This document shows, in pieces, positions 38 through 49,101 of a stretch of DNA of 64,000 nucleotides. The DNA comes from Gammaproteobacteria bacterium (GTDB lineage: Bacteria > Pseudomonadota > Gammaproteobacteria > Eutrophobiales > Eutrophobiaceae), in the NCBI GenBank assembly GCA_965243115.1, contig CBDEUD010000003.1, forward strand, positions 3,707,967 to 3,771,966, given 5' to 3'. The notes beneath the pieces are model-generated. The model made no database searches. It had not been told where the DNA came from and saw only the letters and a program-made list of their open reading frames with translations. A program made the position numbers and the translations under genes. Each line of letters starts with the position of its first letter. The stretch's first letter is position 1.

Positions 38-3000
38 ATGAGTAGTTATTCTCCTGATTTGAACAAGACGGAAGCCGCCCCGGAACAATCCGGCCGGGAG
101 GCCGAGCACGAGATCACCCGGACTCTGGCAGGCCCGGGCAACCAGGCTGCCGCCAGCGGCGCAGACCCCGCCGGCGCCGGTAATCCCGCCGCGGCCCTGC
201 ACACGGTGAGCGCAGGGATTCGGTCGGGCATCTCACCCCTGCAATTCATGGACAGTATCGATGCGGGGGCACGGCAGATGGGCAACCGCGGCTTCATGCA
301 CTGGGTGGAGCAGTTGCATGGGGAAGGACAAGCGGGGGCAACCCATGAGATTGCGGCACAGGGACTGCAGGGCCCGGGGCGGCCGCTGACCCATCTCGAT
401 ACCCTGCAGCGAGCCTTCGGCCATCACGACATCCGGGGCATGCGCGAACACACCGGGCCGGTCGCGGGTACGGCGCTGGAGGCCCTGGATGCAGAGGGGT
501 ACACCCGCGGCGGGCGCATGGCGCTGGCCGGCACCCCGGACCTGTACACCCAGGCCCATGAGGCGGCGCACGGGGTGCAGCAGGCGGCGCTGGGGAACGG
601 AATGGCGTTACCGGGCGGCATCGGTGTGGCGGGGGACCGCTATGAGCGGCAGGCGGATGCGGTGGCAGAGGCGGTGCTGCGGGGAGCATCGGCGCAACCC
701 CTGCTGGACCGGGTGAGCGCAGGACCCGTACAGGTCAATGCCGCTGCCGTGAGCGCTGCCGCGCCGGTGCAGATGAGGAGAAGGAAGCAAAGGCGCGCGG
801 ATGCGCCCCGGCCGGGGAACGCGCCAGGCCAGGACCTGCCGGCAGCGGAACAGGAAGCCGTGGAGATGGCCGATGTCGCAGGACAACCGGAGGCGCAAGC
901 GCCTGCCGGCGGCGGCGTGGATCCCCAGGAACTCGCGGCGGCCCTGGAACAGGTGCAGCAGGCAGCCGGGGAAGCGGCCGATGTCGCCGCAGAACCGGCC
1001 CAGCAACAGGCTGCCGGAGGCAACGCGGCAAACCAGCAACCCGGGGACGGGGAACGCGATTACCTGGCAACGATTGCAAACTATTTATTCCCGGGGGCCC
1101 AACCAGCCGGGAACAATGATACGCGCGCAACGGGGGAAAGGTATTTCACCTACTTTTTCCCGGCGCTAACCTACCTGTACAGCTGTCTCAAGGAGCGCGC
1201 CGGACAGGTACAAACGGATGAGCATGGCGCATGCAGCCTGCGCGGGATACTGAACATGCTGGCAACCGTCATGTTCGGAGTCATGATGGTCGCCCCGGGT
1301 CTGCCCCTGGACGTCATCAACAATGTCCTCGGCGGCGTAGCCAAGGTCATCGTTATCATCAGCTCCATCCTGGGTCTGCCCGCAGACTGGTTGCTGAAGC
1401 TCTACCAGAAAAAGTATCCTCCGGAGCAGGAGGACATCGCCCGGGCCGAAGCCGATGACGCACTGATTTACCTGCCCAGGCACATCCCGGAATGGCTCAC
1501 CACCCTGGCCTCCTCCGCCTACTTTCAAGCTGCAATTTCACAGGGCAGCATCTCCCCTAGCCAGTGGCTCCAACCTTGGTCTCCCCTGCGTATTTCCATC
1601 ATCGTAGCCAGGTCGATTACGGACCTCGTATTAATCAATATGCTCTTTGGCGGGTTGACCGATTGGATTAGTAAAAATGTATTGAAGGAAAAGCTGGGTT
1701 GGGGTCCGACCCGTTCAACAGTGTACGTACTCTCGCTGGGCGCAACATTCGCCCCTGTGATTGACTACATTTCATCGTACCTGTTGAACCCCGAACTTTC
1801 GATTTACCTGGTGTATCAAAATATTCTTGAAGAAAACGATTATCGATCCAGCGGCGCGGCTACAGGTCTTTTCATCGGTTATGCCGCTCTGGGCATGCTC
1901 CTCCAGTACCTGGCCGGAATATTGCTTATGTTTTTCCTCTTATTCAGGATAGGTGCAGGAAATGATAAATGGCGCAAGCAGTTCTACACCATCTCCAACA
2001 GGCTGTTACGGTATATTGCCGTGTTCCTGGCATCAGCCCGTAATATGATTATCAATGTCCTGTCCCTGTCCAACTTTGCCGCACTGGTTGTTACGAATAT
2101 TATCGGGCCGCTTGCCAGGGAATTCGGACAGGGCGGAGCATGTCTCTGGCCGCTGGCCGCGGCAGATGTCTGCGGGGGACTGCCTGGTGATTTCGATTTC
2201 ATTGCGTTCGCTAAGGAGATAAATCAAGGCAAAGATAACCTGCCGCCCGAGCATCTCGACATAATACGGGCATTCCCCGGGCTGGTGGGTGTTCTCGGGC
2301 TTGGCATCCCCATTGCAACCGTAATTGCGCTGCTCTGCCGCAAGCGCTGGACCGGGCGCGGCGCGGCGGAACCCGACCGGGAAGCGGGAAGAGCGGGACG
2401 CCGGGACCGTGCGCGCGGAACCGGGCGCGGAACACCTGTGCCTGCTCCCCGCGGAAGAAGAGCGGCAGGCAGGGGTCGCGCCCGTCTGGTGGAAGAAGAT
2501 GCAGAGGCGGGCAGACGCGCCGATAAGGATGAGGGTCAAGCGACGCCCCGCATCTACGACAGAATCTCGTCGCTGTTCGGCACGATGCGCAGACAAAGGC
2601 GCCGCGGGCACCCACAGCCGCGCACGATGGTAAATACTGCTGCCTTGAATTTGCCCGAAGGACTGACACCGGGAGCGGCATGTTTGTGCCGATTATCTTT
2701 GGAAACATCCAATCCTGTTTCATTTATACAAGAGAGAATCAGACGCTATGTAGACTATGACGATATCACGCAGGAAGACTTAAGATTGATAATGGCCTGG
2801 GTGGAACAATACCTGTTGCCGGCAGCGGATGCCCCGGAACCCGGACAAACCGCAACGGCGGTTATAGAGTCACAGTACAGCCTGGCAACGGCGGTAACTG
2901 TTCAAGCCGGTGGAGAGTCCGCGCCGGCGGGCCTGACGGGGGAAGAAACCACGACAGATCACCGGGACAGTAACCTTCCGGAGGAGGAACAATTGGCTTT

Positions 3001-3538
3001 AGCTGAAACCAATATACCCCGGAGAATCAGTGTACCTGCCCGGTTTATGTGTTGGCAGGTAATACATATTGTGCCTCCGTCCCAGTTCACTCCTGATTAT
3101 GTGCAAAAGATCATCCAGCTCAATGCCGGCAGAGGCAATATCACGGAAGCGGAAGCAAGGCTGGCAAGCGTTTGGGCGAGACATTACCTGTTTCCGCAGG
3201 CGCCGGAACCGGGGCGCAGGAGTGGCACTGCGTCCAGTTCGGCCAGCTCGGGTTATATACATATGAGCGGGACGGCGCAGACAACCCACGCATCACCTAC
3301 CTGGACCGATTATGACCCGGCAACATCCGGGACCGGTTCCACCGCTTCGGCTACGTCGTTGCATGCGGCGTCACAAGCGGTGTACACGGATTTGTTGTCG
3401 ATGGCCGGCCAACTCACCGTAGAGGAAATGGAGCGGCGGCTCAGGGAGGAGATTGAGAAACGCAGGCTCACGGAAGAGGAAGCGGCAGAGATAAGAAGAC
3501 GGCTGGAGGATGTAGTGTTGTTTCCACGACAAAGTTAA
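38..3538 (+). CDS. DUF4157 (eCIS core domain)-containing putative effector with multi-pass membrane region and C-terminal helical repeats
   Basis: N-terminal 'MGNRGFMHWV' motif, then GRPL..LQRAFGHHDIRGMREHTG..AEGYTRG..AHEAAHGVQQ (HExxH), 'DRYERQADAVAEAV' and 'APVQM', the usual DUF4157 layout. About 7-8 hydrophobic helices at aa ~400-770. Confidence 0.8.
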   Translation: MSSYSPDLNKTEAAPEQSGREAEHEITRTLAGPGNQAAASGADPAGAGNPAAALHTVSAGIRSGISPLQFMDSIDAGARQMGNRGFMHWVEQLHGEGQAGATHEIAAQGLQGPGRPLTHLDTLQRAFGHHDIRGMREHTGPVAGTALEALDAEGYTRGGRMALAGTPDLYTQAHEAAHGVQQAALGNGMALPGGIGVAGDRYERQADAVAEAVLRGASAQPLLDRVSAGPVQVNAAAVSAAAPVQMRRRKQRRADAPRPGNAPGQDLPAAEQEAVEMADVAGQPEAQAPAGGGVDPQELAAALEQVQQAAGEAADVAAEPAQQQAAGGNAANQQPGDGERDYLATIANYLFPGAQPAGNNDTRATGERYFTYFFPALTYLYSCLKERAGQVQTDEHGACSLRGILNMLATVMFGVMMVAPGLPLDVINNVLGGVAKVIVIISSILGLPADWLLKLYQKKYPPEQEDIARAEADDALIYLPRHIPEWLTTLASSAYFQAAISQGSISPSQWLQPWSPLRISIIVARSITDLVLINMLFGGLTDWISKNVLKEKLGWGPTRSTVYVLSLGATFAPVIDYISSYLLNPELSIYLVYQNILEENDYRSSGAATGLFIGYAALGMLLQYLAGILLMFFLLFRIGAGNDKWRKQFYTISNRLLRYIAVFLASARNMIINVLSLSNFAALVVTNIIGPLAREFGQGGACLWPLAAADVCGGLPGDFDFIAFAKEINQGKDNLPPEHLDIIRAFPGLVGVLGLGIPIATVIALLCRKRWTGRGAAEPDREAGRAGRRDRARGTGRGTPVPAPRGRRAAGRGRARLVEEDAEAGRRADKDEGQATPRIYDRISSLFGTMRRQRRRGHPQPRTMVNTAALNLPEGLTPGAACLCRLSLETSNPVSFIQERIRRYVDYDDITQEDLRLIMAWVEQYLLPAADAPEPGQTATAVIESQYSLATAVTVQAGGESAPAGLTGEETTTDHRDSNLPEEEQLALAETNIPRRISVPARFMCWQVIHIVPPSQFTPDYVQKIIQLNAGRGNITEAEARLASVWARHYLFPQAPEPGRRSGTASSSASSGYIHMSGTAQTTHASPTWTDYDPATSGTGSTASATSLHAASQAVYTDLLSMAGQLTVEEMERRLREEIEKRRLTEEEAAEIRRRLEDVVLFPRQS

Positions 3539-3741: not shown

Positions 3742-6700
3742 ATGGTCTGGAAACACAACTTTCAGAACTGCGATGTCCGCTCGTCGAGCCCGTTACGGGC
3801 GCGCAAACGGCTCAAGTCCGGCCGGGCGTTGAAACGCGCCTGCGCCAGGTATCCCAAAGTCCCGTCCCGGGAAGCTTTTCGCATCGTTGCAGCAACGGTT
3901 GCGCTGGTCCTCGGCCTGTTGAGCGCCCTACCGGTCCATGCTGCAACGGAATCGCGGGTAGTCTTCCATAACTGGGGTAGAGACGAAGTATCCAATTGGG
4001 TTCTTGTCGATGATTATGACGGTTCTGTCAGGATAGACAGTTCGAATCCCGGTATCGGCCAGGAGTTCACTACCGGTCCTGGTGATTTCGATCCTTATGT
4101 GGACGCATATCTGCTGACTCGCCTTTCGCTGTCGGTAAGGAACTTCAGCGGCAACGTAACCGGCATCCAGCTCGGGGGGGCTATCCATATCGTTAACGAC
4201 GACGGTACGCGTGGTGGGATAGTGCGGTACATGCAACACAGCGGAGTCCTTACAGTTAATGACGCTTTCATTTTTACCCCGTATGACGATCGGCCCATCC
4301 TGTTGCAGACGCATCAGCGCTACATGTTCGTATTGGAATGTCTTAACTGTGTTGAAGGCGATGAGCGTTGGGTAGCTTTCGATACGACACGCGATGACAT
4401 GGACAACGACCATAGACCGTCTACTAATTATGCGGCACTAGGCGATTGCACTAAGAATGGCTATGGGGCTGTATGCGACCTTTTTCCGCCGAATCACACT
4501 GGATGGGAAATCGGGGATTACCATGTAAGATCGGATGAAGGCTGGGTGCATACCAACGATAATGAGCATATACTGATCACGAGGGGAGATGCTATATGGC
4601 TCTACTACCCCGAGACTCCCATAAACCTCACCGAGCTCCCGTCCGGTAAGCCGGGCGAAGTCAACTTGGCCTGGGATTCGCCGGAGCGCCCGGAATACGA
4701 AATACCGGAAGCCTTTGATCCAGGTATATGCTGCTACGGACCGGTGCCACCGCCTCCGGGAATTGATCCGGAGATCACTCACCACGAGTACCGCTACAAG
4801 CTCACCGATGACCAGGCTTGGGGGGAATGGACGGAGATTCCCCACAGCGCTCCCGGAGATCATCATGCAAACCAAACCACGATTCCGGGACTGCGAAACG
4901 GCGTGCCCTACGACTTTCAGGTGCGGGCAGTGAATGAGGACGGGCCGAGCCCGCCCGACAGCGCCGTCGGCATGGCGGGCGGCGAGTTGGGCATCTGCCC
5001 CCGATCGCCCGCGGTGCGGGATGCGATTGTCGATAAGATCAGCGCCGTCGACGATTGTGCTGAGGTGACGGCGGATATGCTGGCGGGACGCGGCAATATT
5101 GTGGACGGCGAGCTGGTGGGCATCGAGCTGGGGGGGCCGGCGAGCCGTCTTGTGATCCGCGCTTCGGACTACGAATACAAATACGGCGATTTCTTCGGGC
5201 TGATGGGGCTGACGGCGCTCGAGTTGACCGGATCTCCACTCAGTGTCATTACGTGGGAGATGTTCAGGGATCTTACGTCGTTGACGACCCTGAATTTGTC
5301 TGACAACGAGATTTGCAAGATTGACGCCGGAGCCCTGAACCATCCCGTTGCGCTGGAGATTTTGTTTCTGAACGACAACCACCTGGGGGACATCTCTGCG
5401 TGCCCCGGCGTTGACGAACCCAGCATGCAGGGGCATGTTTTCAACTACCTGACGTCGCTGCAGGTGCTCAATCTGAACAATAACCGGCTTTCCGAACAGA
5501 GCTTTGATTACCTAGACAAGACATACGCCGAACTACCGACATTTCAGAAACTTACCGCGCTCCGGGAAATCCGGTTGCGAGGGAACGGCCTGGAAGACCA
5601 CCATCTGCAGAGAAGCTACGACACGGGGGGGAACTCGGTGAGCATCTTTACTGCGCATAATCCCGGTGGTAATGAACCTTCCGGTCTGCCGGATCTGCAA
5701 TTGATCGACTTGTCGAATAACCGGCTCACCACGCTGCCGGACAAAATCTTTTTCGGCCTCTCAAACCTGAGCGCGTTGCACCTGGATCGGAATGCGGCCG
5801 ATCCCATGATTATGACCGTTTCCCTGGCAACGGATGAACAGTCCCGCGTCAAGGCGATGATGCCGACCGGCGCGCCGTTTACCGTGATCCTGCCTGTTAA
5901 CGTGGCGGACGGTAGCATCGCGGACGGGGCGAACGCACTCGCGATTCCCACCGGCGCCGTGGAAAGCCAAGCTTTCCCGGTGATCTCGAACACCCGTACG
6001 GTTCAGGACCCTGCCGTCAGTATCGCATCGCTGCCAGCCTTGCCGGGGTCGCATACCGGTTACGAGTTACGGGATGCGGATGCCGATGAACAACCGCCGT
6101 TTGAGGCGGACTTGCCGGCGTTCAGCATCACCGCTGCTTATGGAAATGAGGGCGACGGGGAGGTCCCGGGGGAGTACGAATTGCCGTCCGGGGAGATCGA
6201 GTTCACGATTACCCTGAGCAGGGCGCTCACGGAGGGGGAGGGGGACGCAAGAGTGAGCTACGCCACTTCGGTGGAGAGCGGACAGACAGCCACCTCGGGC
6301 GAGGATTTCGCTATGACACGCGGCTCGAAATTGTTCGTTTCTGCTATCGAGGGGATCAGGGAGGGGACCACCAAGAGAACCTTTTCCGTCCGTCTTGTCG
6401 ATGATTACGTGACTGAAGGAGTTGAAACCTTCACGGTCACGCTGTCCGACCCTACTCCGAATGCGCGGCTCGACGAAAACAGGAAGTCCGCCGTCGGCTA
6501 TATCATAGAGGAGAGCGCCGTGCCCGTACTGATCATTGACGATGCCTCGGGCGATGAGGGTAGCGGGACGGTCGATTTCACAATCACGATGAGCAGACCG
6601 AGCTGGTACGACACGATGGTGCAATACTCCACTTCAGTGGAGAACGGGCAGACGGCGACCCCGGAAACGGATTTCACCACCGTCACCGGCGCTACGGCGA

Positions 6701-9700
6701 CGATCACGGCGCACACTACCACGACTACCGTTTCCATCCCCGTCGCCAACGATAATGAAGAAGAGCCCCAAGAAACCTTCACGGTCACGCTGTCCGAGCC
6801 GTCAACGGATACGTATTCCGCGCCGGAGCTCGGACCCGGACCCTTGCGCTCCGCCGTCGGCACCATCCTGGACGACGATGGCGTTGCGCCGAACTTCGTC
6901 TCGGCGGCAGTGGACGGAACAACGCTGGTGCTGACCTATGGCGAGGCGCTGGACGAGGATTCGACGCCGGACAAGCGCGCGTACACGGTACACGCGGACG
7001 GCGGCGCCGGATCCGCTCCCGCCGCCGTGGACATCAGCGGTTCCGAGGTCACGCTGACGCTGGCGACGGCGGTGAGGTTCGGCCAGGTGGTGACCCTGAG
7101 CTACGAAGTGCCGGCGGAGAATCCGGTGCAGGACGTCGCGGGGTACGATGCGGCAGGGTTGACCGACGAGCCGGTGGCCAACAACACGGTGGACACCGAG
7201 GCGCCGGTGGTTGACTTGGCGACGGTGGACGGGACCGCGCTCGTCATCACCTTTGACGAGGACCTGGACGAGGCGGCGACCCCGGCCAACAGCGCCTTCA
7301 CGGTGAAGGTGGGCGGCACGCCGGTGGACCTGAGCAGTACTACACCCCCTTCCATCAGCGGCGCCACGGTGACGCTGACGCTGGCAAGCGGGGTAGCGGA
7401 CGACGACACGGTGACGGTGAGCTACGTGAAGCCGGCGGACACCAACAATCTGCTGCAGGACGCCGCCGGCAACGAGACCGAGAGCTTCACCGACGAGCCG
7501 GTGACCAATAACACCGCGGACACCGAGGCGCCGGAGTTTGCGTCGGCGGTGGTGTACGGGACGACGCTCGACATCATCTTTACCGAGACCCTGGACGAGG
7601 CCGCGGCGCCGGACCTGGCCAACAGCGCCTTCAAGGTGAACAAGACCCCGTTCGGGGGCAGCGAGGAGCCGGTGACCCTGACCGGGACGCCGAGCATCAG
7701 CGGCGCCACGGTGACGCTGACGCTGGCAAGCACGGTGGCGGACGACGACAGGGTGACGGTGAGCTACGAGAAGCCGGTGACGGGCACCAACAACCGGCTG
7801 CAGGACGCCGCCGGCAACGAGACCGAGAGCTTCACCGACGAGCCGGTGACCATCGACAACACGCCCGCGGAAGGGCGGCCGGATATCTGCGGCAGTATGG
7901 AGGTCGGTCAGATACTGACGCCGGACCCCATCGGCGGCATGTGTGAAGCCGGTGAATTACTGACGCCGAACAACCAGCGTGACGAACACGGTAATCCACG
8001 ACCGCCGGAAGAGCATACGCCCAACGGCATCACGGATACGGACGGCAAGACAAACGCCGACAGCGGCATTGCGGGTTATGCCTACCGCTACCGCTGGATC
8101 CGGTTGGACGCCAACGGCAGAAGCAACCCGACCGTGGTTGCGGTCGACCAGGATACCTACACGCTGGTGGCGGCGGATGAAGGCAAGAGGTTCAGGGTGC
8201 AGGCGCGCTTCACCGACGACAAGGGCAATGCCGAGGGACCCTTGACGAGTTTTCCGACCCGTCATTCGCCCGACATGCCGGGCCTCGTCACGGGAGATGT
8301 GACCGCGCCGGAGCCCCTCTCGGCGGCGGTGACCGGCGCCGCGCTGGTCATCACCTTCGACGAGACCCTTGCGGCGGCGCCAAATCTGGCGAACAGCGCC
8401 TTCGCGGTGAAGAAGACTCCGGCCGGGGGCAGCGAGCAGACGGTGGACCTGAGCGGGACGCCGGGCACCAGCGGCGCCACGGTGACGCTGACCCTGGACG
8501 CGCCGGTGGCGGCTTCCGACACCGGCATCACGGTGAGCTACACCAAGCCAGCTACGGGCAGCGGCAACAAGCTGCAGGATGCGGCGGGCAACGAGGTAGA
8601 GGACTTCACCGACGAGCCGGTGACCAACAGCGCCGGCAACAATGCCGCGTCGGGCCAGCCGACAATCTCCGGCGCGCCAGAGGCCGGCCTGACGCTGACG
8701 GCCGGGATAGGCGACATCACGGACGGCGATGGGCTGCCCGGCGCCTTCCCGGACGACTACAGGTTGCAGTGGATCCGGGTGGATGCCGACGGTTCATCCA
8801 ATCCGATGCACGTGGGCTCGGACCAGGCGAGCTACACGCTGGTCGGGGACGACGTGGACAAGAGGATCAAACTGGAGGTGCGCTTCACGGACGCTCTCGG
8901 CAATGCCGAGGGGCCGCTGACCGGCGACCTCACCGATGCCATCGTAAGGCCGTCGTTGACGGCGCGCTTCGTTCCCCCGGAACAGACGGTCATCGAAGGG
9001 GAAAACGCAACGGTGACGCTGGAGATCGACGTGTCGCGGCAGCCTGACGGTATTGTCAATTACCGGGTGTTCGCCCATGAAGGTAACGCGATCCCGGTCG
9101 ATGACTACACCCCGGTGAGAGTGGTTCTGGAGGGGGTGCCGGTCGCGGACTTCACGAGGCAGAACGACGGCAGTTACCGATACGAGCGGACGTATGAGTT
9201 GAGCACGCTCAAGGATGCGTTGGTGGAAGGCGAAGAATACTTCTATTTCAACATAGAGCACCTCTCCGTGAGCGGCCACGGGTATTATTCAACCACGGTC
9301 GAGGGCGACGAAAAAGGCGCGCTGATCAAGATACAGGAGCTTGCGCCTGCGACGGGCCGGCCCGGCATCGAGGGGGCGCCGCACCTGGGCGAGACCCTGA
9401 CGGCGACCAAGGGCACGATTGACGACGGCAACGGAACAACCAGGGCCGACAACGGCGATGCGGGCTACGCCTATACCTACCAGTGGTACCGGGTCGATCC
9501 CGACGACAACTCCGCCCGGACCGAAATCAACGGCGCGACCTCGCAGACCTACACCCTGACCGATGACGAACAGGGTAAAAAGGTCATCGTTGACGTGAGC
9601 TTCAGGGACGATCTAGGTACCGACGAGGGGCCGTTGGCGAGTGAGGCCTACCCGGGGGGGGTGGGGAAAATCGGGGTCGGCAATGCGACAGGAGCTCCGA

Positions 9701-12700
9701 AGATTACGGGCGAGGCGCGGGTGAGCCAGACCCTGACGGCGACCAAGGGCACGATTGACGACGACAACGGAACAACCGAGGCCGACAACGGCACCGCGGG
9801 CTACGCCTATACCTACCAGTGGTACCGGGTGGACCCGGACGGCGTGAGCAACGCCGTCGAGGTGGGGTCGGACCAGGACAGCTACACGCTGGTGGCGGCG
9901 GATGCCGGCAAGAAGATCAGGGTGCAGGTGAGTTTCCTCGACGATGGCGGAGTTGCCGAGGGGCCGCTGGAGAGCGCCGCCTACCCGCCTACGGGGACAA
10001 TCCGGGCCAATAATGCGGCAGGCCAGCCGACGATTTCGGGCCAGCCGCACGTGGGCGAGACACTGACTGCGGACACCAGCGGCATCACGGATCCGGACAA
10101 CACCCCCGGGGTGGCCATCACCTATAACTACCAGTGGTACCGGGTGGACCCGGACGGCGTGAGCAACGCCGCCGAGGTGGGGTCGGACCAGGACAGCTAC
10201 GAGTTGGTAGCGGCGGATGCGGGCAAGAAGATCGTAGTAACGGTGAAATTCAAGGATGAACAAGGCAACGACGAGGGGCCGCTGGAGAGCGTGGCGTTTC
10301 CGCGGCTCGGAACCGTCAGGGATGCCAACAACCCCGCCACGGGCAAGCCCGCCATCAGCGGCGCGGCGCAGGTGGGCGAGACCCTGACGGCCTTGACCGG
10401 CGGCGTCTCCGACCTCGACGGCAAGACGAAGGCGGACAACGGCGATACCGGCTACGCCTGGACCTACCAGTGGTTCCGGGTCGATGCCGACGGCACTACG
10501 AACAAGACCGCGATCACCAATGCGACCTCGGACACCTACACCCTGACCGGCGCCGAGGACGGCAAGAAGGTCATCGTGGAAGTAAGCTTCACCGATGACG
10601 CCGGCAACGCCGAAGGGCCGCTGGCCAGCGACGCCTGGCCCGCCGGGACCAGGACGATCGCCACCTGCGACGCGGTCTGGTGCGGAACCCTGACGGTGCG
10701 GGGCCTCGACGGGGGCCACCGTGGCTGCGCGAACTCCCAAGCGGCTGCCAGGAGGTGCTCGAACGCGTCGAACCTGGACGAGGACGAGTTCACGCACGCT
10801 ATGGCCGACTATGCGGTCACCTCGATCCAGGTCCGGTCCAGCGGGCAGCTCCAGCTCTGGATCAGTCCCCAGCTCACGACCCAGTCGCTGGCGCTGCATA
10901 TCGGCGCCGCGGCGTTCCCCTTCCGGGACGCGCACACCGAGGACACGAATGACCGTCGCTGGAACAATTCCGGGCTGAGCTGGTCGGTGGGTGAACAGGT
11001 CTACCTGGAACTGCGGGAGGACACCGAGGCGCCGGCGTTCAGCTCGGCGGCGGTGAACGGCGCGGCGCTGGTCATCACGTTTGACGAGACCCTGGTCGAG
11101 ACGACGAACCTGGCCAACAGCGCGTTCACAGTGAAGGTGGGCGGCAGCGATGTGGGTCTGACCGGCACGCCGTCCGTCAGCGGCGCCACAGTGACGCTGA
11201 CGCTGGCCACTGCGGTGGCGCACAGCGACACGGTGACGGTGAGCTACACCAAGCCTGCGACGGGCAGCAACAACAAGCTGCAGGATGTGGCGGACAACGA
11301 GGTGGAGAACTTCACCGACGAGGCGGTGGACAACATCACCAACGCCGCGGCGACGGGCAAGCCCGCCATCACCGGCACGGCAGCGGTGGGTGAGACCCTG
11401 GCCGCGGGGGCAGGCACCATAGCCGACGACAACGGGCTGCCGGCCACGTTCCCGGACGATTACAGTTTCCAGTGGCACCGGGTCGATGCAGACGGCACTA
11501 CCAACAAGACCGCCATCACCGGTGCGACCTCAAGCACCTACACCCTGGCTGCCACCGAAGAGGACAAGAAGGTCATCGTGGCGGTGAGCTTCACGGACGG
11601 TGACGGTCACGCCGAGACGCTCGAGAGCGATGCGCATCCGTCCGTGGGCACCGTTACCGTGGCCGACAGCACGGCGCCGGCGTTCAGTTCGGCAACAGTA
11701 GGCGGGACGGCGCTCGTCATCACCTTTGACGAGGCCCTGGCGGCGGCGAACCTGGCGAACGGCGCGTTCACGGTGAAGGTGAACGGCAGCGGAGTGACCC
11801 TGACCGGAACACCGAGCATCAGCGACGACACGGTGACGCTGACCCTAGCCAGTGCGGTGGCGCACGACGACACGGTGACGGTGAGCTACGCGAAGCCCGC
11901 GACGGACAACAGCAACCGGCTGGAGGACGCCGAGGGCAACGAGACCGCAAGCTTCACCGACGAGACGGTGACCAACAACACGGCGGATACCGACGCGCCG
12001 GCGTTCGTCTCAGCGGCGGTGGACGGGGCCTCGCTGGTGATCATCTTTACCGAGGCCCTGGCCGCGGCGGCGAACCTGGCCAATGACGCGTTCACGGTGA
12101 AGACGACGCCGTCCGGGGGCAACGAGCAGACGTTGACACTGGCCGTAACGCCGACAATCAGCGTCGCCACGGTGACGCTGACCTTGGCGAGTGCCGTGGC
12201 GCACGACGACACGGTGACGGTGAGCTACGCCAAGCCGGGAACGGACAACAACAACCGGCTGGAGGACGCCGACGGCAACGAGACGGCAAGCTTCTCCGAT
12301 GAGCCGGTGACCAACAACACCGCAGACACCGAGGCGCCGGCGTTTGCATCGGCGACGGTGGACGGGACGGCGCTGGTGCTCACCTTTACTGAGGCCCTGG
12401 CCGCGGCGCCGAACCTGGCGAACAGCGCGTTCACGGTGAAGAAGACCCAGGCAGGCGGCAATGAGCAGACGGTGACGTTGACCGCGTCACCGAGCATCAG
12501 CGGCGCCACGGTGGCGCTGACCCTGGCCGGTGCGGTGGCGCACGACGACGCGGTGACGGTGAGCTACACCAAGCCGGCGACAGACAACAGCAACCGGCTG
12601 GAGGATGCCGACGGCAACGAGACGGCGGGCTTCACCGACGAGCCGGTGACCAACAACACGGCCGACACCACGGCGCCGAAGTTTGCATCGGCGGAGGTGA

Positions 12701-15700
12701 ACGGCACATCACTCGTCATCACCTTCGATGAGGCCCTGGCCGCGGCGCCGAACCTTGCAAACAACGCGTTCGTGGTGAGGAAATCGCCGTTAAGTGGCGG
12801 TTCTTTTGAGGATATGGACCTGAGCGGGACGCCATCCATCAGCGGGACGACGGTGACGCTGACCCTGGCCAGTGCGGTGGCGCACGACGACGTGGTGACG
12901 GTGCGCTACGCCAGGCCTGGGGCGGACGACAACAACCGGCTGGAGGACGCCGCCGGCAACGAAGTGGAATCCTTCATCGATGTTGCGGTCAACAACACGC
13001 CGGGAGTGATATTGAGCCAGACGGCGCTGTCGGTGAACGAAGGCGGCACGGCAACCTACTCGGTGAAGCTGGCCGTGCAGCCGAGCGGGACGGTGACGGT
13101 GAGGATCGGGGGGACGACGACAGTCGTGACGGTGAACAAGAGCACCCTGGATTTCACGACGGGGAACTGGGCCACGGCGCAAACGGTGAGAGTACGCGCG
13201 GCGCAGGATGCGGACGCCATCAACGACGAGGTGACGCTGACGCACACGGCGTCCGGCGGCGGCTACGACGGGGTGGCCATCGACAGCGTTGAGGTAACGG
13301 TGAGAGACGACGACCGCAGCGTGACGGTGACGCCGACGACGCTGCCGGTGGACGAGGGCGGCACGGCAACCTACACGGTGAAGCTGGACGGGCAGCCGAA
13401 CGGGACGGTAACGGTGACGATCGGTGGGATGTCGGGCACGGACGTGAGGGTGGATGACGACACGCTGGATTTCACGACGACGGACTGGAACACGGCGCAG
13501 ACGGTGACGGTAACGGCGGCGCAGGATGCGGACGCGGTGGATGACGAGGTGACGCTGACGCACACGGCATCGGGCGGCGGCTTCAATGGGGTAGCCATCG
13601 ACAACGTCGTGGTGATGGTGACGGACACTACTGCGCCCGCCGACCCCGACAGGTGCGACTCCTCCCCCGGGACAATGCGGCTTATGGGAGGCAACGATCG
13701 CGAAATGCATGGGGGGCGTTATATTGAAGGACGCCTGGAAATTTGCGCGGTGCACCCTGACAGAGGCGCCGTTTGGGGCACTATATGTGATGACTACTGG
13801 ACGAACGATGAAGCGAACGTGGCATGCCGGGGGTTGGGTTTCCCCAACGGCTCCGTACCGGGGGGAGGGCAGTTCCTGCGCTCGTACTTCGGCCCGGGGA
13901 CACTGGATATCCTGCTGGATGACCTGTTGTGCATGGGGAACGAGGGGAGTCTCCTGGAATGCCCGACGTCACGCGGCAGCCGGGCCGGGGATTACGTCGG
14001 CCGGCACAATTGCCGGTTGACCGAAACCGTCGGCGTGCGCTGCCAGACGGAGGCGCCCATTCTGTCGGTGGCCGACGTCGAGGCACAGGAGGGTACGGAT
14101 ACGTCGCTGGAATTTACTGTGCGTCTGGACCGGGCGGCCTCGCAGGTCGTGACGGTGGACTACGCCACCGCTGACGGCACGGCGAAAGCGGGCGATGATT
14201 ACAGTACCGTGAGCGGGACGTTGAGGTTTGCGCCGGGCGAGACGGAAAAAATGGTCCAAGTCCGGCTGCTGGATGATTACATTGACGAGGAAAGGGAAAG
14301 GCTGAAACTGGTGCTTTCGAACGCCTCGGGGGCGGACTTTCCCGGCGGCGAGACGATGCTGACTGCGACGGGCACCATCATCAACAGCGACCCGATGCCC
14401 AAAGGCTGGCTGGCGCGTTTCGGCCGCACCAGCGCCACCCAGGTAACGGATATGCTGGGCGCACGGTTTGATGCAGCCGTTCCACCGGCCTCGCAACTGA
14501 CCCTGGGCGGGCGCCGCATACGCCTGCCTGGCGGGCAGGCCGGACGGGAACGGCCTGAACCGGCGCCGACCGGGACCGGCGGGGAGGACAGGGAGACCGC
14601 TGAGAACGCTGAAACCGCTGAGAACACCGAGAACACTCGGAATACCGAGAATACTGAGAATACTGAGAATACAGCCAACCTCGCTATGTCCGGCCGCCTG
14701 CGCGGTAGCGCTGAGACAGAGCGGGTGGATGGCGCTGACGTCCGGACGGCGGACGGGCGCCATCCGTCACCGGTGCGCCCTGCCGACGCTGCAGAAGATC
14801 TGAGCGGGTCGGCGGCCGGCGGGGCGCGCCATCCTAACCTGATCGAGCGGGCCGCCTGGGCGCTGCTGACCCGGCGCGAGTCCCTGTGGGACGTGGACCG
14901 GCGCCGGTTCCTGTCGCAGAGCAGCTTTAACCTGTCCCTGTCGGGGCAGGGCAGTGACGGGGACGAGGACGGCAGTGCGATGCAGCCGCCGGGCGGGCGC
15001 TGGTCGCTGTGGGGGCGGGGCGCGCTGACGCACTTCGGCGGACGCGAAGGCGAGGTGGGGATTGACGGCGACGTGCTGACCGGGCTGATGGGGCTGGATT
15101 ATACGGTCGACCGCTGGCTGGCCGGCGTGGCGCTGTCCTGGAGTGACGGCGACGGGCGCTACCGTTCGGAGTTGGGCAGCGGTACCGTGGACAGCCACCT
15201 GGCCGGGGTGTACCCGTACGGGCGCTATGCGCTTAGCGATAAGCTGTCGGTGTGGGGCGCGCTGGGCTACGGCCTGGGCGAGATGCGCCTGCAACGGCCC
15301 GGGGACCGGGAGCCTGCGGGGGAGGCGTTGGCGGCCGGCATCCACATGGGCATGGGTGCGACCGGCATCCAGGGCATCGTCTATGCGAGTGAAGCCACGG
15401 AACTGGCGGTGAAGTCGGACGTCCTGCTGGTACGCACATCCTCGGAGGCCGTCGAGGGCATGGCCGGGGTGGCAGCCGCCGCTGCGAGCCGCCTGCGGCT
15501 GCTGCTGAGCGGCCGCCACCAGCGGGCGCTGGCCAATGATGCGCTGCTCTCGCCTGAGTTCGAACTGGGTCTGCGTTACGATGGCGGCGCTGCCGAGACC
15601 GGTTTCGGCCTGGAGCTGGGCGGCGGGCTGCGTTATGCCGACCCGCTGCTGGGGTTGACGCTGGAGACCCGGGCCAAGGGGCTGCTTACCCATGAAGACG

Positions 15701-16104
15701 GCGGTTATGAAGAATGGGGGTTGTCCGGCAGCGTACAGGTCGACCCCGGCCGGGCCGGCCGCGGGCTCATGCTGCGGCTTGCCTCGGGCTGGGGCAGGAC
15801 GGCGAGCGGCACGCAGGCGTTATGGAACAGCAAGGGCGCGCGCGGCCTGGCGCCGCAGCAGGGCGGCGCCCCGGGGAGCCGGTTCAGCGCCGAGTGGAGC
15901 TATGGGCTGGACCTGCCGTGGCAGCGCGGGCTGTTGACGCCGTACGCCGGCGTTGAGATGGCCGGGCGCAGCCGCCGGTTGCGGCTGGGCTGGCGCTACG
16001 AGGTGGGGCAGTGGTTGAGCCTGAGCCTGGACGGTGAGCGCCGCGAGACGCCCCACTCACGGCCGCAGCACGGCCTGACGCTGCGATTGACGCTGCCCTG
16101 GTGA
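3742..16104 (+). CDS. Giant (4120 aa) modular autotransporter-like surface protein/adhesin: FN3, LRR, Calx-beta, SwmB-like, Ig-like, SRCR, beta-barrel
   Basis: Extended signal peptide ending LPVHA; FN3 (LAWDSP..HEYRY..YDFQVRAVN); LRRs (LTTLNLSDNEI, LQVLNLNNNRL, LQLIDLSNNRLTTLP); Calx-beta (VDYATADGTAKAGDDY); 9x 'AP.F.SA.V.G..LVITFDE.L..LQDAAGNE'; 7x 'ATG.P.ISG...VGETLTA..YQW.RVD'; SRCR; autotransporter-like barrel ending in W. Exact start codon uncertain. Confidence 0.85.
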   Translation: MVWKHNFQNCDVRSSSPLRARKRLKSGRALKRACARYPKVPSREAFRIVAATVALVLGLLSALPVHAATESRVVFHNWGRDEVSNWVLVDDYDGSVRIDSSNPGIGQEFTTGPGDFDPYVDAYLLTRLSLSVRNFSGNVTGIQLGGAIHIVNDDGTRGGIVRYMQHSGVLTVNDAFIFTPYDDRPILLQTHQRYMFVLECLNCVEGDERWVAFDTTRDDMDNDHRPSTNYAALGDCTKNGYGAVCDLFPPNHTGWEIGDYHVRSDEGWVHTNDNEHILITRGDAIWLYYPETPINLTELPSGKPGEVNLAWDSPERPEYEIPEAFDPGICCYGPVPPPPGIDPEITHHEYRYKLTDDQAWGEWTEIPHSAPGDHHANQTTIPGLRNGVPYDFQVRAVNEDGPSPPDSAVGMAGGELGICPRSPAVRDAIVDKISAVDDCAEVTADMLAGRGNIVDGELVGIELGGPASRLVIRASDYEYKYGDFFGLMGLTALELTGSPLSVITWEMFRDLTSLTTLNLSDNEICKIDAGALNHPVALEILFLNDNHLGDISACPGVDEPSMQGHVFNYLTSLQVLNLNNNRLSEQSFDYLDKTYAELPTFQKLTALREIRLRGNGLEDHHLQRSYDTGGNSVSIFTAHNPGGNEPSGLPDLQLIDLSNNRLTTLPDKIFFGLSNLSALHLDRNAADPMIMTVSLATDEQSRVKAMMPTGAPFTVILPVNVADGSIADGANALAIPTGAVESQAFPVISNTRTVQDPAVSIASLPALPGSHTGYELRDADADEQPPFEADLPAFSITAAYGNEGDGEVPGEYELPSGEIEFTITLSRALTEGEGDARVSYATSVESGQTATSGEDFAMTRGSKLFVSAIEGIREGTTKRTFSVRLVDDYVTEGVETFTVTLSDPTPNARLDENRKSAVGYIIEESAVPVLIIDDASGDEGSGTVDFTITMSRPSWYDTMVQYSTSVENGQTATPETDFTTVTGATATITAHTTTTTVSIPVANDNEEEPQETFTVTLSEPSTDTYSAPELGPGPLRSAVGTILDDDGVAPNFVSAAVDGTTLVLTYGEALDEDSTPDKRAYTVHADGGAGSAPAAVDISGSEVTLTLATAVRFGQVVTLSYEVPAENPVQDVAGYDAAGLTDEPVANNTVDTEAPVVDLATVDGTALVITFDEDLDEAATPANSAFTVKVGGTPVDLSSTTPPSISGATVTLTLASGVADDDTVTVSYVKPADTNNLLQDAAGNETESFTDEPVTNNTADTEAPEFASAVVYGTTLDIIFTETLDEAAAPDLANSAFKVNKTPFGGSEEPVTLTGTPSISGATVTLTLASTVADDDRVTVSYEKPVTGTNNRLQDAAGNETESFTDEPVTIDNTPAEGRPDICGSMEVGQILTPDPIGGMCEAGELLTPNNQRDEHGNPRPPEEHTPNGITDTDGKTNADSGIAGYAYRYRWIRLDANGRSNPTVVAVDQDTYTLVAADEGKRFRVQARFTDDKGNAEGPLTSFPTRHSPDMPGLVTGDVTAPEPLSAAVTGAALVITFDETLAAAPNLANSAFAVKKTPAGGSEQTVDLSGTPGTSGATVTLTLDAPVAASDTGITVSYTKPATGSGNKLQDAAGNEVEDFTDEPVTNSAGNNAASGQPTISGAPEAGLTLTAGIGDITDGDGLPGAFPDDYRLQWIRVDADGSSNPMHVGSDQASYTLVGDDVDKRIKLEVRFTDALGNAEGPLTGDLTDAIVRPSLTARFVPPEQTVIEGENATVTLEIDVSRQPDGIVNYRVFAHEGNAIPVDDYTPVRVVLEGVPVADFTRQNDGSYRYERTYELSTLKDALVEGEEYFYFNIEHLSVSGHGYYSTTVEGDEKGALIKIQELAPATGRPGIEGAPHLGETLTATKGTIDDGNGTTRADNGDAGYAYTYQWYRVDPDDNSARTEINGATSQTYTLTDDEQGKKVIVDVSFRDDLGTDEGPLASEAYPGGVGKIGVGNATGAPKITGEARVSQTLTATKGTIDDDNGTTEADNGTAGYAYTYQWYRVDPDGVSNAVEVGSDQDSYTLVAADAGKKIRVQVSFLDDGGVAEGPLESAAYPPTGTIRANNAAGQPTISGQPHVGETLTADTSGITDPDNTPGVAITYNYQWYRVDPDGVSNAAEVGSDQDSYELVAADAGKKIVVTVKFKDEQGNDEGPLESVAFPRLGTVRDANNPATGKPAISGAAQVGETLTALTGGVSDLDGKTKADNGDTGYAWTYQWFRVDADGTTNKTAITNATSDTYTLTGAEDGKKVIVEVSFTDDAGNAEGPLASDAWPAGTRTIATCDAVWCGTLTVRGLDGGHRGCANSQAAARRCSNASNLDEDEFTHAMADYAVTSIQVRSSGQLQLWISPQLTTQSLALHIGAAAFPFRDAHTEDTNDRRWNNSGLSWSVGEQVYLELREDTEAPAFSSAAVNGAALVITFDETLVETTNLANSAFTVKVGGSDVGLTGTPSVSGATVTLTLATAVAHSDTVTVSYTKPATGSNNKLQDVADNEVENFTDEAVDNITNAAATGKPAITGTAAVGETLAAGAGTIADDNGLPATFPDDYSFQWHRVDADGTTNKTAITGATSSTYTLAATEEDKKVIVAVSFTDGDGHAETLESDAHPSVGTVTVADSTAPAFSSATVGGTALVITFDEALAAANLANGAFTVKVNGSGVTLTGTPSISDDTVTLTLASAVAHDDTVTVSYAKPATDNSNRLEDAEGNETASFTDETVTNNTADTDAPAFVSAAVDGASLVIIFTEALAAAANLANDAFTVKTTPSGGNEQTLTLAVTPTISVATVTLTLASAVAHDDTVTVSYAKPGTDNNNRLEDADGNETASFSDEPVTNNTADTEAPAFASATVDGTALVLTFTEALAAAPNLANSAFTVKKTQAGGNEQTVTLTASPSISGATVALTLAGAVAHDDAVTVSYTKPATDNSNRLEDADGNETAGFTDEPVTNNTADTTAPKFASAEVNGTSLVITFDEALAAAPNLANNAFVVRKSPLSGGSFEDMDLSGTPSISGTTVTLTLASAVAHDDVVTVRYARPGADDNNRLEDAAGNEVESFIDVAVNNTPGVILSQTALSVNEGGTATYSVKLAVQPSGTVTVRIGGTTTVVTVNKSTLDFTTGNWATAQTVRVRAAQDADAINDEVTLTHTASGGGYDGVAIDSVEVTVRDDDRSVTVTPTTLPVDEGGTATYTVKLDGQPNGTVTVTIGGMSGTDVRVDDDTLDFTTTDWNTAQTVTVTAAQDADAVDDEVTLTHTASGGGFNGVAIDNVVVMVTDTTAPADPDRCDSSPGTMRLMGGNDREMHGGRYIEGRLEICAVHPDRGAVWGTICDDYWTNDEANVACRGLGFPNGSVPGGGQFLRSYFGPGTLDILLDDLLCMGNEGSLLECPTSRGSRAGDYVGRHNCRLTETVGVRCQTEAPILSVADVEAQEGTDTSLEFTVRLDRAASQVVTVDYATADGTAKAGDDYSTVSGTLRFAPGETEKMVQVRLLDDYIDEERERLKLVLSNASGADFPGGETMLTATGTIINSDPMPKGWLARFGRTSATQVTDMLGARFDAAVPPASQLTLGGRRIRLPGGQAGRERPEPAPTGTGGEDRETAENAETAENTENTRNTENTENTENTANLAMSGRLRGSAETERVDGADVRTADGRHPSPVRPADAAEDLSGSAAGGARHPNLIERAAWALLTRRESLWDVDRRRFLSQSSFNLSLSGQGSDGDEDGSAMQPPGGRWSLWGRGALTHFGGREGEVGIDGDVLTGLMGLDYTVDRWLAGVALSWSDGDGRYRSELGSGTVDSHLAGVYPYGRYALSDKLSVWGALGYGLGEMRLQRPGDREPAGEALAAGIHMGMGATGIQGIVYASEATELAVKSDVLLVRTSSEAVEGMAGVAAAAASRLRLLLSGRHQRALANDALLSPEFELGLRYDGGAAETGFGLELGGGLRYADPLLGLTLETRAKGLLTHEDGGYEEWGLSGSVQVDPGRAGRGLMLRLASGWGRTASGTQALWNSKGARGLAPQQGGAPGSRFSAEWSYGLDLPWQRGLLTPYAGVEMAGRSRRLRLGWRYEVGQWLSLSLDGERRETPHSRPQHGLTLRLTLPW
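14593..14676 (+). repeat. Degenerate in-frame 9-bp tandem repeat (ACTGAGAAT-like; encodes ETAENAETAENTENTRNTENTENTENT) in the passenger-barrel linker
   Basis: About 9 consecutive 9-nt units read directly from the sequence. Confidence 0.8.
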
Positions 16105-16150
16105 TCGAGGTGGCTTTTTGTTGTCCGATGCGGCAAGTGTCTTGTTTTTA

Positions 16151-16237
16151 CGGAGAGGGTGGGATTCGAACCCACGGTACGCCGAGGCGTACAACAGATT
16201 TCGAGTCTGCCCCATTCAACCACTCTGGCACCTCTCC
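16151..16237 (-). tRNA. tRNA-Ser(CGA), long variable arm, 3' CCA not encoded
   Basis: Reverse complement GGAGAGGTGCCAGAGTGGTTGAATGGGGCAGACT-CGA-AATCTGTTGTACGCCTCGGCGTACCGTGGGTTCGAATCCCACCCTCTCCG: acceptor stem, GGTTCGAATCC T-loop, discriminator G followed by TAA. Confidence 0.95.
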
Positions 16238-16268
16238 AGGGCGTCAAGTTTAACTCATTATAACCGGG

Positions 16269-45581: not shown

Positions 45582-45714
45582 ATCTTCACTCCCGTAGAAT
45601 ATCGATTGAACGATTTCAGACAGCAGCAAAGAGGGGAAACGGAGCAGATCAAATGCCCTATGCCGCCCTCCGCAACATGTCACTAATGTTCCGGGAACGA
45701 AACCCGGACCGGCG

Positions 45715-45945
45715 TATCCAGGCCGGTCTCCGGACTGACAGCCCTGACTGTCTGCAGTCAGCGTACCGGACACCTTCCCATGCCGGCCCCGGGTTTGAAA
45801 TACTCCGGGCCACGGCCACAGTGGTTAACGTCCGGGACCAAGGCTGATCACCGTTGCGGGGGCAGTGCTGGATTCGTTCGTGTGAACTCACCAGTCTTCC
45901 CGTGAATCCACCCGGCGAATAAACTCACCGGCTGGAAACCTGTAT
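45715..45945 (-). ncRNA. Cobalamin (AdoCbl) riboswitch
   Basis: Minus strand: AGGTTTCC..GGGAA..GGTG..AATCC..CTGCCCCCGCAACGGT..CCACTG..GGGAAGG..AGTCCGGAGACCGGCC (B12 box). A pyrimidine-rich anti-SD-like tract lies downstream. Boundaries approximate. Confidence 0.92.
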
Positions 45946-45988
45946 ACAAGGTCAGATGGTAAAGGATGTAACGCAGCAATACAAATAT

Positions 45989-46065
45989 ATCCGCAGATTA
46001 CGCAGATTATCGTAGATGAATATCATTTTTATTTTTATCTGCGTTCATCTGCGTCATCTGCGGAT
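45989..46065. repeat. Inverted element built from triads of 9-10-bp CGCAGAT units; encodes the cobQ C-terminus
   Basis: ATCCGCAGAT-TACGCAGAT-TATCGTAGAT (45989-46018), AT-rich spacer, ATCTGCGTTC-ATCTGCGTC-ATCTGCGGAT (46037-46065). Confidence 0.8.
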
Positions 46066-47509: not shown

Positions 47510-47529
47510 AGGTCTGGGTAACCGAAAAA

Positions 47530-48483: not shown

Positions 48484-49036
48484 ACTTCAGTTCCACGGCC
48501 AGTCCTGCGACCATCAGGTACACCTTGTCTGCGCGTGCGGCGAACATCTGGTTTACCCGCCCCAGTACGTCACGGTAATTTCGCCCCAGTTCCGTGGCCG
48601 GCACCACGCCCAGCCCTGCCTCGTTGCTGACCACGATCCACCTCGCATCCGTGCGGTCGTACAGGTCCAGAAGCGCGCCGGCGCGGGACAGGATTTCCGC
48701 TTCCGCACCGCTGGCGTCACCCTGCTTCAGCAGCAGGTTGCTGACCCAGACGGTCAGGCAATCCAGCAGCAGCGTATCCTGGCCGGATAGTGCGGGGGGA
48801 ATTGCCGCGACCGGGTCAAGGGGCTCTTCCAGGGTGTCCCAGGCAGCGGGGCGCCGTGCGCGGTGCTCGCTGATGCGCCGCCTCATGTCCTCATCCAGGG
48901 CCTCGGCGGTAGCGATGAAAAGCGTGCGTTCGCCCTGCAGGGCCAGCTTCTCCGCACAGGCGCTCTTGCCGGAGCGCGCCCCGCCGAGTACCAGGATCAA
49001 CTGTTTTTCCACCTTGCCTTGTTGCATCAATTGCAT
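48461..49036 (-). CDS. cobU: Adenosylcobinamide kinase/guanylyltransferase (CobU/CobP)
   Basis: LVLGGARSGKS, H.ARRP, DCLTVW, VSNE.GLGVVP motifs. Confidence 0.95.
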   Translation of the reverse strand: MQLMQQGKVEKQLILVLGGARSGKSACAEKLALQGERTLFIATAEALDEDMRRRISEHRARRPAAWDTLEEPLDPVAAIPPALSGQDTLLLDCLTVWVSNLLLKQGDASGAEAEILSRAGALLDLYDRTDARWIVVSNEAGLGVVPATELGRNYRDVLGRVNQMFAARADKVYLMVAGLAVELKSIGAPPY

Positions 49037-49101
49037 CCTGTAAGGATAGCCGGGGCCCGGGCCCGGGTATTGTCAAGCCATGGTGTCATATGCGGCTCAC
49101 G

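Follow-up and report, generated by a model that had tools for sequence, protein, structure and literature searches.

An animal-type scavenger receptor cysteine-rich domain in a giant predicted surface protein of a gammaproteobacterium and in its bacterial relatives

Among the candidate immune or recognition modules of sponges, the domain known as scavenger receptor cysteine-rich (SRCR) has expanded the most, and passages of the literature on sponge SRCR proteins treat the domain as a host-side receptor for microbes. A sponge-dominated type with a seventh cysteine, named 'Group C', is counted in a passage of one paper (PMC10855680) in 765 Amphimedon genes, two sea urchin genes and one sea star gene. 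For SALSA/DMBT1, part of another report (PMC7043408) assigns D1019, D1020 and E1086 to cation site 2 and D1020, D1058, D1059 and N1081 to cation site 3, and states that ligand binding is abolished in the alanine mutants D1019A and D1020A. On the side of the symbionts, eukaryotic-like proteins have been proposed to modulate host phagocytosis (a passage of PMC11000336 citing Reynolds and Thomas 2016). Literature searches on SRCR with symbionts, bacterial genomes or metagenome-assembled genomes (MAGs), made at title and abstract level, found no report of SRCR domains in symbiont genomes. Here we analyse a window of 64,000 nucleotides (the whole stretch of DNA considered; contig CBDEUD010000003.1, positions 3,707,967 to 3,771,966, from a marine gammaproteobacterium of the Eutrophobiaceae), in which a single very long open reading frame (ORF) encodes a giant predicted surface protein with an SRCR domain. 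An earlier note, made from the sequence alone, had drawn attention to this domain.

Only one SRCR domain is found within the window. A Pfam search of window:13621-14073 matched PF00530 (SRCR), for which the cut-off is 26.1 bits, with a score of 66.6 (E 2.7e-18), and in a search of the whole protein the same family matched residues 3323-3435 with 59.2 bits over profile positions 2-100 of 100. A phmmer search of PDB sequences returned 27 chains at E<=0.001, every one SRCR-bearing, including CD163, PIT54, CD5L, LOXL2, neurotrypsin, DMBT1, M2BP, SCARA1/5, MARCO, CD6 and factor I. The AlphaFold2 (AF2) model of the domain, computed from an alignment of 20 bacterial SRCR domains (A1), had a predicted local distance difference test score (pLDDT) of 84 and a predicted template modelling score (pTM) of 0.79. 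When this model was compared with the PDB by Foldseek, the matches listed (ranks 1-50) were SRCR-domain structures only, with SCARA5 and M2BP (target template modelling (TM) scores 0.81 and 0.83) followed by DMBT1, SCARA1 and MARCO, and with target TM scores of 0.71-0.84 for the single-domain entries among them; these matches assign the model to the SRCR fold, a curved beta-sheet that cradles one helix. The ESM Atlas neighbours, useful as leads only, were eukaryotic clusters only (Mollusca, Chordata, Chlorophyta, Porifera), and neither SRCR nor the N-terminal 500 residues of the giant protein are covered by a model in NCBIfam. By sequence and predicted structure, the window encodes a genuine, folded SRCR domain of the animal family, an assignment far beyond chance. 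The earlier note had claimed a complete metazoan-type SRCR domain and had proposed the PF00530 search as a check, and both are borne out; all the motifs that it quoted are present in the ORF translation. As for its coordinates, the end at 14043 is exact (the last cysteine, C3434, occupies 14041-14043), while the start at 13650 lies one base early, in a frame full of stops: the SRCR peptide is read in frame +1 of the ORF, its codons begin at 13651, and the first extra cysteine, C3305, occupies 13654-13656.

The domain is not alone among bacteria. In what follows, P numbers denote database proteins and L numbers denote loci from a scan of species genomes. A search with the domain among proteins of 2266-7210 residues gave 76 matches including the protein itself. 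Of the 75 others, 49 are animal or unnamed eukaryote-like multi-SRCR proteins and 26 are bacterial-type giants, which carry one SRCR domain (two in three of them) at 43-64% identity and pair it with Calx-beta, SWM, cadherin, fn3 or LRR modules. Per-domain scores in this search were 79-169 bits to the bacterial giants (62 to P0069-71), and no animal domain exceeded 70. Proteins of 266-2000 residues gave 284 matches at E<=1e-10, and nine of the 120 matches listed were bacterial-type. P0117 and P0118 are 80% and 79% identical to the window SRCR, and the next nearest relatives, at 64% and 60%, are also bacterial. One relative, encoded by a Myxococcota MAG, bears the NCBI name SRCR domain-containing protein, and the PF00530 tag already stands on these bacterial proteins in the databases.

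To see how far such domains extend, 185,579 species-representative genomes were scanned with the motif [IV]CDDYWTxx[EDN], which gives a lower bound. The scan found 33 loci in 29 genomes, all of them MAGs, and these loci do not include the genome of the window; within the limits of the motif, the rarity in bacteria that had been assumed at the outset is therefore confirmed. According to record titles and NCBI lineages, 18 of these genomes belong to Gammaproteobacteria (including Ca. Foliamicus, Ca. Rariloculus/Rariloculaceae, Ca. Azotimanducaceae and Pseudomonadales); record titles place six in Dehalococcoidia/Chloroflexota and one in Ca. Entotheonella, and leave four unclassified. Ca. Entotheonella is a sponge symbiont, and Rariloculus, Foliamicus and Azotimanducus were reportedly named by Nguyen and co-workers in 2023 ('novel gammaproteobacterial diversity in sponges'); the NCBI lineage entry reads 'Rariloculus (ex Nguyen 2022)'. 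The isolate labels add indirect hints, taken from partial records: the SB06xx_bin series also has Entoporibacteria bins, and Langseth Ridge is a sponge ground. Three SRCR ORFs, of 313 to 3977 residues, were seen in single genomes (L020 twice with L025; L009 with L022 twice), which indicates duplication or repeated capture of the module.

In five of the loci (L002, L003, L006, L009 and L015) the SRCR domain lies at residues ~50-200, right behind the signal peptide, whereas in the window protein and its orthologues it is close to the C-terminal domain. Since its position differs in this way among the giants, we regard SRCR as a shuffled module. The suggestion that the domain is displayed near the membrane anchor thus holds for the window protein and fails for relatives that carry it at the far N-terminus.

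The window SRCR contains eight cysteines. Six are at the universally conserved SRCR positions, and these core columns hold cysteine in 78, 78, 78, 78, 78 and 75 of 78 bacterial domains and are invariant in A1. The remaining two are those of 'DRC' (C3305) and 'LEIC' (C3335). The 'LEIC' cysteine is present in 42 of the 78 bacterial domains, and all 42 have a further cysteine more than 12 residues upstream, as against just 8 of the 36 domains that lack it; across the aligned domains the extra two cysteines are a coupled character. The AF2 model is confident near the upstream cysteine (pLDDT 92 for block 11-20), and a putative fourth, N-terminal disulfide, C3305-C3335, would stand beside the three canonical ones. 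The C1-C4 pair of group B is missing, with no cysteine before GRLE and a Phe for the cysteine of LGCG, a position (C4) that is cysteine in 228 of 318 vertebrate rows. Group A is defined by exactly six cysteines, and with eight the domain is best described as group A-like plus one pair. The earlier note had read six core cysteines and an extra pair, and all eight could be mapped. A subgroup with seven cysteines was also observed, comprising five Dehalococcoidia/Chloroflexota loci (L019, L024, L027, L029 and L031) and P0064-P0074; these have a cysteine at group B C1 (PCEGRLEI) and a Phe at C4, in proteins without the C-terminal barrel described below.

The residues that line the cation sites of SALSA are also retained. 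In the DMBT1 rows of our alignment (primate, cat and pangolin) the six columns of sites 2 and 3 read D-D-D-D/N-N-E with spacings of 1, 38, 1, 22 and 5, exactly as in the SALSA numbering, and at these columns the window SRCR has D, D, D, D, N and E. Over the 78 bacterial domains the same residues occur 77, 78, 77, 71 (plus seven Asn), 73 and 75 times, while the aspartate of SALSA site 1 is replaced by Thr in 70 of 78. This pattern of conservation points to selection for a binding site, beyond the fold alone, and retention in 71-78 of 78 domains argues for a binding function that has been kept rather than for a spacer.

Two phylogenies place the domain among these bacterial relatives. In a quick maximum-likelihood tree (305 domains, 112 columns), 53 of 60 bacterial rows form one pure clade (Shimodaira-Hasegawa-like approximate likelihood ratio test, SH-aLRT, 75). 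Its successive sisters are a Geodia barretti domain with one P0069 domain (SH-aLRT 90), an Oopsacas domain with an unnamed kinase-SRCR protein (SH-aLRT 90) and 16 further sponge or unnamed rows (SH-aLRT 87). The careful tree (151 rows, 135 columns) was thinned, with at most six rows for each sponge protein, and had Amphimedon, Ephydatia and more Oopsacas domains added. Here 42 of 48 bacterial rows form one clade (ultrafast bootstrap (UFBoot) 87, SH-aLRT 98; paired values below are in this order), which lies inside a 78-row cluster (62/80) together with 18 demosponge and 11 unnamed rows, four from Chlamydomonas, one brachiopod row and one echinoderm row. The free unrooted tree already splits animals from bacteria, which makes an approximately unbiased (AU) test of that split moot.

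The extra cysteine adds an independent character that shows the same split, and was counted at the 'LEIC' column over all 3200 extracted domains. It occurs in 42/78 bacterial, 60/111 sponge, 6/6 Chlamydomonas and 38/315 unnamed domains, in a single vertebrate domain (1/1246), and in no domain from echinoderms (0/729), molluscs (0/548), brachiopods (0/58), placozoans (0/56), hemichordates (0/36) or cnidarians (0/17); sponges thus stand at 60/111 against 1/2690 for other animal domains. Among the sponge proteins, three of Geodia, two of Amphimedon and one of Ephydatia carry it in all their domains, two of Oopsacas and another of Ephydatia in none.

We therefore think it likely, on these alignments, that the bacterial clade goes back to the transfer of an animal-type SRCR; a demosponge is the best candidate for the donor, yet seems only marginally the better supposition. 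Later on, the domain probably passed among bacteria of several phyla and was shuffled into varied positions of their adhesins. The horizontal acquisition that the earlier note had put forward is likely as regards an animal source, and is not borne out as a private or recent event, for the nearest relatives, at 80-60% identity, are bacterial. In the same way, the phylogeny that it had called for speaks against a lone acquisition, the window SRCR grouping with bacteria, and these are MAGs of sponge-named lineages rather than a broad free-living clade.

The protein that carries the domain is modular (Table 1), with an unassigned region between the signal peptide and the fn3-like segment. It is collinear over its full length with P0046, P0047, P0048, P0050 and P0077 (38-69% identity per block). 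The listed ATG is probably ~42 codons too far upstream (window 3742-3870), because the homologues P0046 and P0050 begin ~42 residues in, at the signal peptide, which (…VLGLLSALPVHA/A) is conserved at the N-termini of P0046, P0047 and P0050. The Ig-like repeats are of the SWM_repeat/Big_5 and AIR9/SCAB-Ig types, with two LapA/fn3_6-like units ahead of SRCR. Within the linker between the last Calx-beta domain and the barrel, an ETAEN/TEN low-complexity repeat was noted at 14593-14679 (…ENTENTRNTENTENTENT…). Of 35 SRCR ORFs in related loci, 18 end in homologues of the final 420 residues, which the Dehalococcoidia ORFs lack.

Table 1. Features of the giant gene and its immediate neighbour, in positions of the window (aa, amino acid residues of the giant protein; a slash marks the signal peptide cleavage site)
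Feature	Position	Strand	Extent	Basis or remark
SRCR-bearing surface protein, giant ORF (P0001)	3742..16104	+	4120 aa	ORF translation
Sec-type signal peptide	3871..3942	+	aa 44-67	read by eye from sequence; hydrophobic core then VHA/A
fn3-like segment	4792..4956	+	aa 351-405	PF00041, 24.4 bits, just below cut-off of 25
Leucine-rich repeats	5209..5793	+	aa 490-684	LRR_8, 75.5-91.5 bits, plus LRR_4 and LRR_1
Two Calx-beta domains	6199..6879	+	aa 820-909 and 935-1046	PF03160, 34.2 and 32.5 bits on segments
Ig-like repeats	7189..13611	+	aa 1150-3290, ~2100 residues	SWM_repeat, 370.5 bits, 9 stretches
SRCR domain including N-terminal extra Cys	13654..14043	+	aa 3305-3434	Pfam, phmmer, AF2, cysteine mapping
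Pfam SRCR envelope	13708-14046	+	aa 3323-3435	
Calx-beta domain right behind SRCR	14095..14343	+	aa 3452-3534	PF03160, 71.7-72.8 bits
Linker	14344..14997	+	aa 3535-3752	low-complexity; start of barrel model has low pLDDT
Predicted outer-membrane beta-barrel	14998..16101	+	aa 3753-4120	PF03797, TIGR01414, AF2, Foldseek
tRNA-Ser(CGA)	16150-16238	-		46 bases past giant ORF

Around the giant gene, the window is an ordinary segment of a bacterial chromosome. NCBIfam identified serA, glmM, ftsH (whose E. coli-type model scores 1012 bits), rlmE, carAB, dapB, dnaK, dnaJ, hrcA, nadK and recN among the neighbours, and further btuB, cobQ, btuF, cobT and a btuC-like permease. The latter belong to a B12 cluster at 43761-54984, in which a cobalamin riboswitch (45704-45958, minus strand; Rfam) lies ahead of the btuB-type receptor, with cobQ, btuF-like, cobT and btuC-like genes. 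Just upstream of the giant gene is an ORF of 1166 residues (38-3538, plus strand), without a match in the NCBIfam search and with a weak match to eCIS_core (PF13699; 23 bits, cut-off 22; residues 122-183) as the sole one in Pfam. The GC content at third codon positions (GC3) is 0.729 in the SRCR stretch and 0.68-0.75 in the housekeeping genes; in the repeat region and the barrel of the giant ORF it reaches 0.87, a value that may reflect amino-acid bias or a foreign origin of the whole adhesin gene.

Overall, we favour, with some reserve, a reading in which the domain came from a eukaryote and works as a Ca2+-dependent adhesion module on a surface fibre of a symbiont. The giant protein would be a Sec-targeted cell-surface fibre for which the C-terminal barrel would serve as outer-membrane anchor, with the passenger exposed on the cell surface and the SRCR domain oxidized in the periplasm or after export. 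Like animal SRCR domains, it could then bind anionic ligands at the calcium level of seawater; a Calx-beta domain, of a Ca2+-binding type, adjoins it. The likeliest targets would be components of the sponge matrix or cell surface, which are favoured because of who carries the domain and what it most resembles, and SRCR would serve either for adhesion or to imitate a host receptor. The donor, the direction of transfer, the formation of the disulfides and the secretion route are elements that we infer.

That the SRCR stretch might be animal host DNA, introduced by mis-assembly or contamination, is suggested by the fact that SRCR is overwhelmingly an animal domain, and by ESM Atlas neighbours that are all eukaryotic. 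However, the stretch has no introns and is part of an unbroken ORF of 12.4 kb, flanked by bacterial Ig-like repeats on one side and by a Calx-beta domain with an outer-membrane barrel on the other; its GC3 equals that of the housekeeping genes, and collinear orthologues from independent assemblies, among which are several complete chromosomes or Mb-sized contigs, have SRCR in the corresponding position. The continuity with bacterial flanks that the earlier note had wished to see verified is therefore present in the single ORF, the housekeeping neighbours and the matching GC3; given the collinear relatives in other assemblies and this GC3, a contaminant or chimera is excluded for practical purposes, and such an artefact is extremely improbable. 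The following observations weigh against the proposed reading. The cluster that joins bacteria and demosponges in the careful tree reaches just 62/80 with a bootstrap that did not converge, and the trees are unrooted, so that nesting within animals hinges on the position of the root. The main clade leaves out six bacterial rows, which fall elsewhere with weak support: three from the Myxococcota protein P0160, the second P0069 domain, L033 and one copy of L022. The best per-domain score is 69.3 bits for sponges, against 78.7 for echinoderms, 74.4 for brachiopods and 73.9 for molluscs, groups that are far more sampled, and all six SRCR domains of P0188 from the green alga Chlamydomonas incerta carry the 'LEIC' cysteine and belong to the same 78-row cluster. 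Within the bacterial clade, 23 rows with the extra cysteine are nested as a subclade (99/92), rows at the base have Y, F or R at that place, and the cysteine common to sponges and bacteria may for this reason be due to convergence or to a second transfer. An AU test uniting all 59 extra-cysteine rows did not reject that grouping (delta lnL 32.3, p 0.223), which leaves a choice between a single transfer, with the pair gained afterwards, and two transfers made separately. In addition, a domain with four disulfides is unusual in the passenger of a type Va autotransporter. The sponge association of the carriers is read from lineage and isolate names only, and one genus of Azotimanducaceae is described as mostly free-living in a passage of PMC12625764. 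Several of these points would suit a donor other than a sponge, that is, another marine eukaryote (alga, echinoderm or mollusc), or an SRCR domain that is ancient in bacteria with eukaryotes as the recipients: echinoderm, brachiopod and mollusc domains rank first by raw similarity, the algal domains have the cysteine in 6/6 cases, the cluster is moderately supported in an unrooted tree, and some bacterial rows stand, weakly supported, beside echinoderm or mollusc rows. We nevertheless find such an origin doubtful, since the nearest named eukaryotic rows are demosponge domains in two trees, the extra cysteine is found in 0/1444 echinoderm, mollusc, brachiopod, placozoan, hemichordate and cnidarian domains against 60/111 from sponges, the carriers bear names of lineages from sponge microbiomes (such as Entotheonella, Rariloculus and Foliamicus), and 29 of 185,579 species genomes in the motif scan speak against an ancient bacterial family.

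With regard to export, type V secretion had been suggested, and it stays plausible given the overall plan of a Sec signal peptide, a huge repetitive passenger and a C-terminal barrel; moreover, no named barrel family other than the autotransporter models scores above cut-off in the window protein, and the barrel of the Entotheonella homologue L018 scores 36.6 bits to TIGR01414. In the window protein itself, on the other hand, TIGR01414 is at 16.1 bits against a cut-off of 16, and PF03797 (36 bits, cut-off 26) covers only profile positions 2-98 of 255 and is matched by 3 of 17 aligned barrel homologues, OMP_b-brl being matched by 4 of 17. The AF2 model of the barrel (alignment A2) is all-beta, with ~18 strands rather than 12 (pLDDT 75, pTM 0.62); Foldseek relates it to several classes of outer-membrane barrel, with BtuB first and target TM scores of only 0.53 for the BrkA beta-domain and 0.43 for Hbp, and when the barrel alignment was run as a profile against PDB sequences, the matches stayed at chance level. 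The passenger, besides, holds 26 cysteines. The protein could thus be no classical type Va autotransporter, the barrel being another outer-membrane anchor or pore or the passenger being exported otherwise; we hold this to be the less probable course, and the C-terminus is best called an autotransporter-like outer-membrane barrel whose membership of type Va is marginal and unproven. An RTX-type adhesin of a type I secretion system, prompted by the Calx-beta domains and weak LapA matches, was set aside in view of the Sec signal peptide and the C-terminal barrel. In two loci, L001 (~11565-11670) and L012 (~10744), the SRCR passenger and the barrel were seen in separate overlapping or adjacent ORFs, which could be due to a frameshift, a sequencing error or a pseudogene, and the barrel family carries passengers with disulfide-rich domains, odd for classical autotransporters. 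As to what the exported domain would meet, the ligands of animal SRCR domains are very broad and polyanionic, including bacteria and hydroxyapatite (part of PMC7043408), and SRCR lies at the base of the fibre in the window protein and at the tip in others. It might accordingly be a rigid, disulfide-stapled spacer, or a binder of other bacteria, phage, or mineral or particle surfaces. The cation-site residues kept in 71-78 of 78 bacterial domains and the spread over lineages of host-associated type, which fits a host-related role, make this rather unlikely, and we retain the Ca2+-dependent, host-directed adhesion module as the preferred reading.

If this reading is true, an intact surface-displayed SRCR domain with its ligand site kept, in several phyla, would mean that recognition between sponges and their microbes could run both ways, and would form a new class among the eukaryotic-like proteins that are believed to help symbionts persist in a filter-feeding, phagocytic host. 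A bolder version, which we put forward tentatively, is that sponge bacteria of at least three phyla captured the demosponge-type SRCR of their host, the hallmark of sponge receptors for pattern recognition and cell adhesion, traded it among symbionts as a common good and display it on giant fibres anchored in the outer membrane as a badge of 'self' or a decoy for the ligands of the host, by way of Ca2+-dependent host self-recognition or aggregation. The finding is of real interest to sponge-symbiosis research; it raises the question of how an autotransporter-like system exports a domain with four (putative) disulfides, and it offers a concrete, expressible module of 130 residues for binding and phagocytosis assays.

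Compared with described systems, nothing here is categorically new in kind, as the SRCR domain, giant adhesins and eukaryotic-like symbiont proteins are all already known. With the animal SRCR domains of DMBT1/SALSA, M2BP, SCARA1/5, MARCO, CD163 and neurotrypsin, the window SRCR shares membership of the Pfam family, the fold, all core cysteines (six) and the six cation-site residues, at 30-39% identity to solved structures. It differs from them in being a single copy in a bacterial protein, with neither a tandem array nor animal partner domains, in having the extra N-terminal cysteine pair and lacking the group B C1-C4 pair, and in a hairpin inserted ahead of its first core strand and a lengthened loop in front of the HNC motif. 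Demosponge SRCR domains (Geodia barretti P0039, P0045 and P0193, Amphimedon P0200 and P0202, Ephydatia P0270) share the 'LEIC' cysteine with it and, in the rows inspected, have the upstream cysteine too, and are the named eukaryotic rows nearest to the bacterial clade in both trees. We suspect that this extra-cysteine type of demosponges and bacteria is Group C, with the upstream partner left outside the domain boundary. However, the identity of demosponge domains to the window SRCR is no higher than that of other animals, and sponge SRCR proteins are built differently, having the domain in tandem and EGF, fn3 or kinase modules beside it. Autotransporter adhesins of type V (BrkA, Hbp/EspP) and giant Calx-beta/LapA-like adhesins show the same signal peptide, long repetitive passenger and C-terminal barrel, whereas the barrel of the window protein is marginal to autotransporter models and predicted to be larger, and its passenger has a (putative) four-disulfide domain. 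Finally, the eukaryotic-like proteins of sponge symbionts (ankyrin, LRR, TPR, fn3 and cadherin) likewise bring a eukaryote-type interaction domain into bacteria of sponge-microbiome lineages, and the window protein resembles them further in its LRR, fn3-like and Calx-beta modules.

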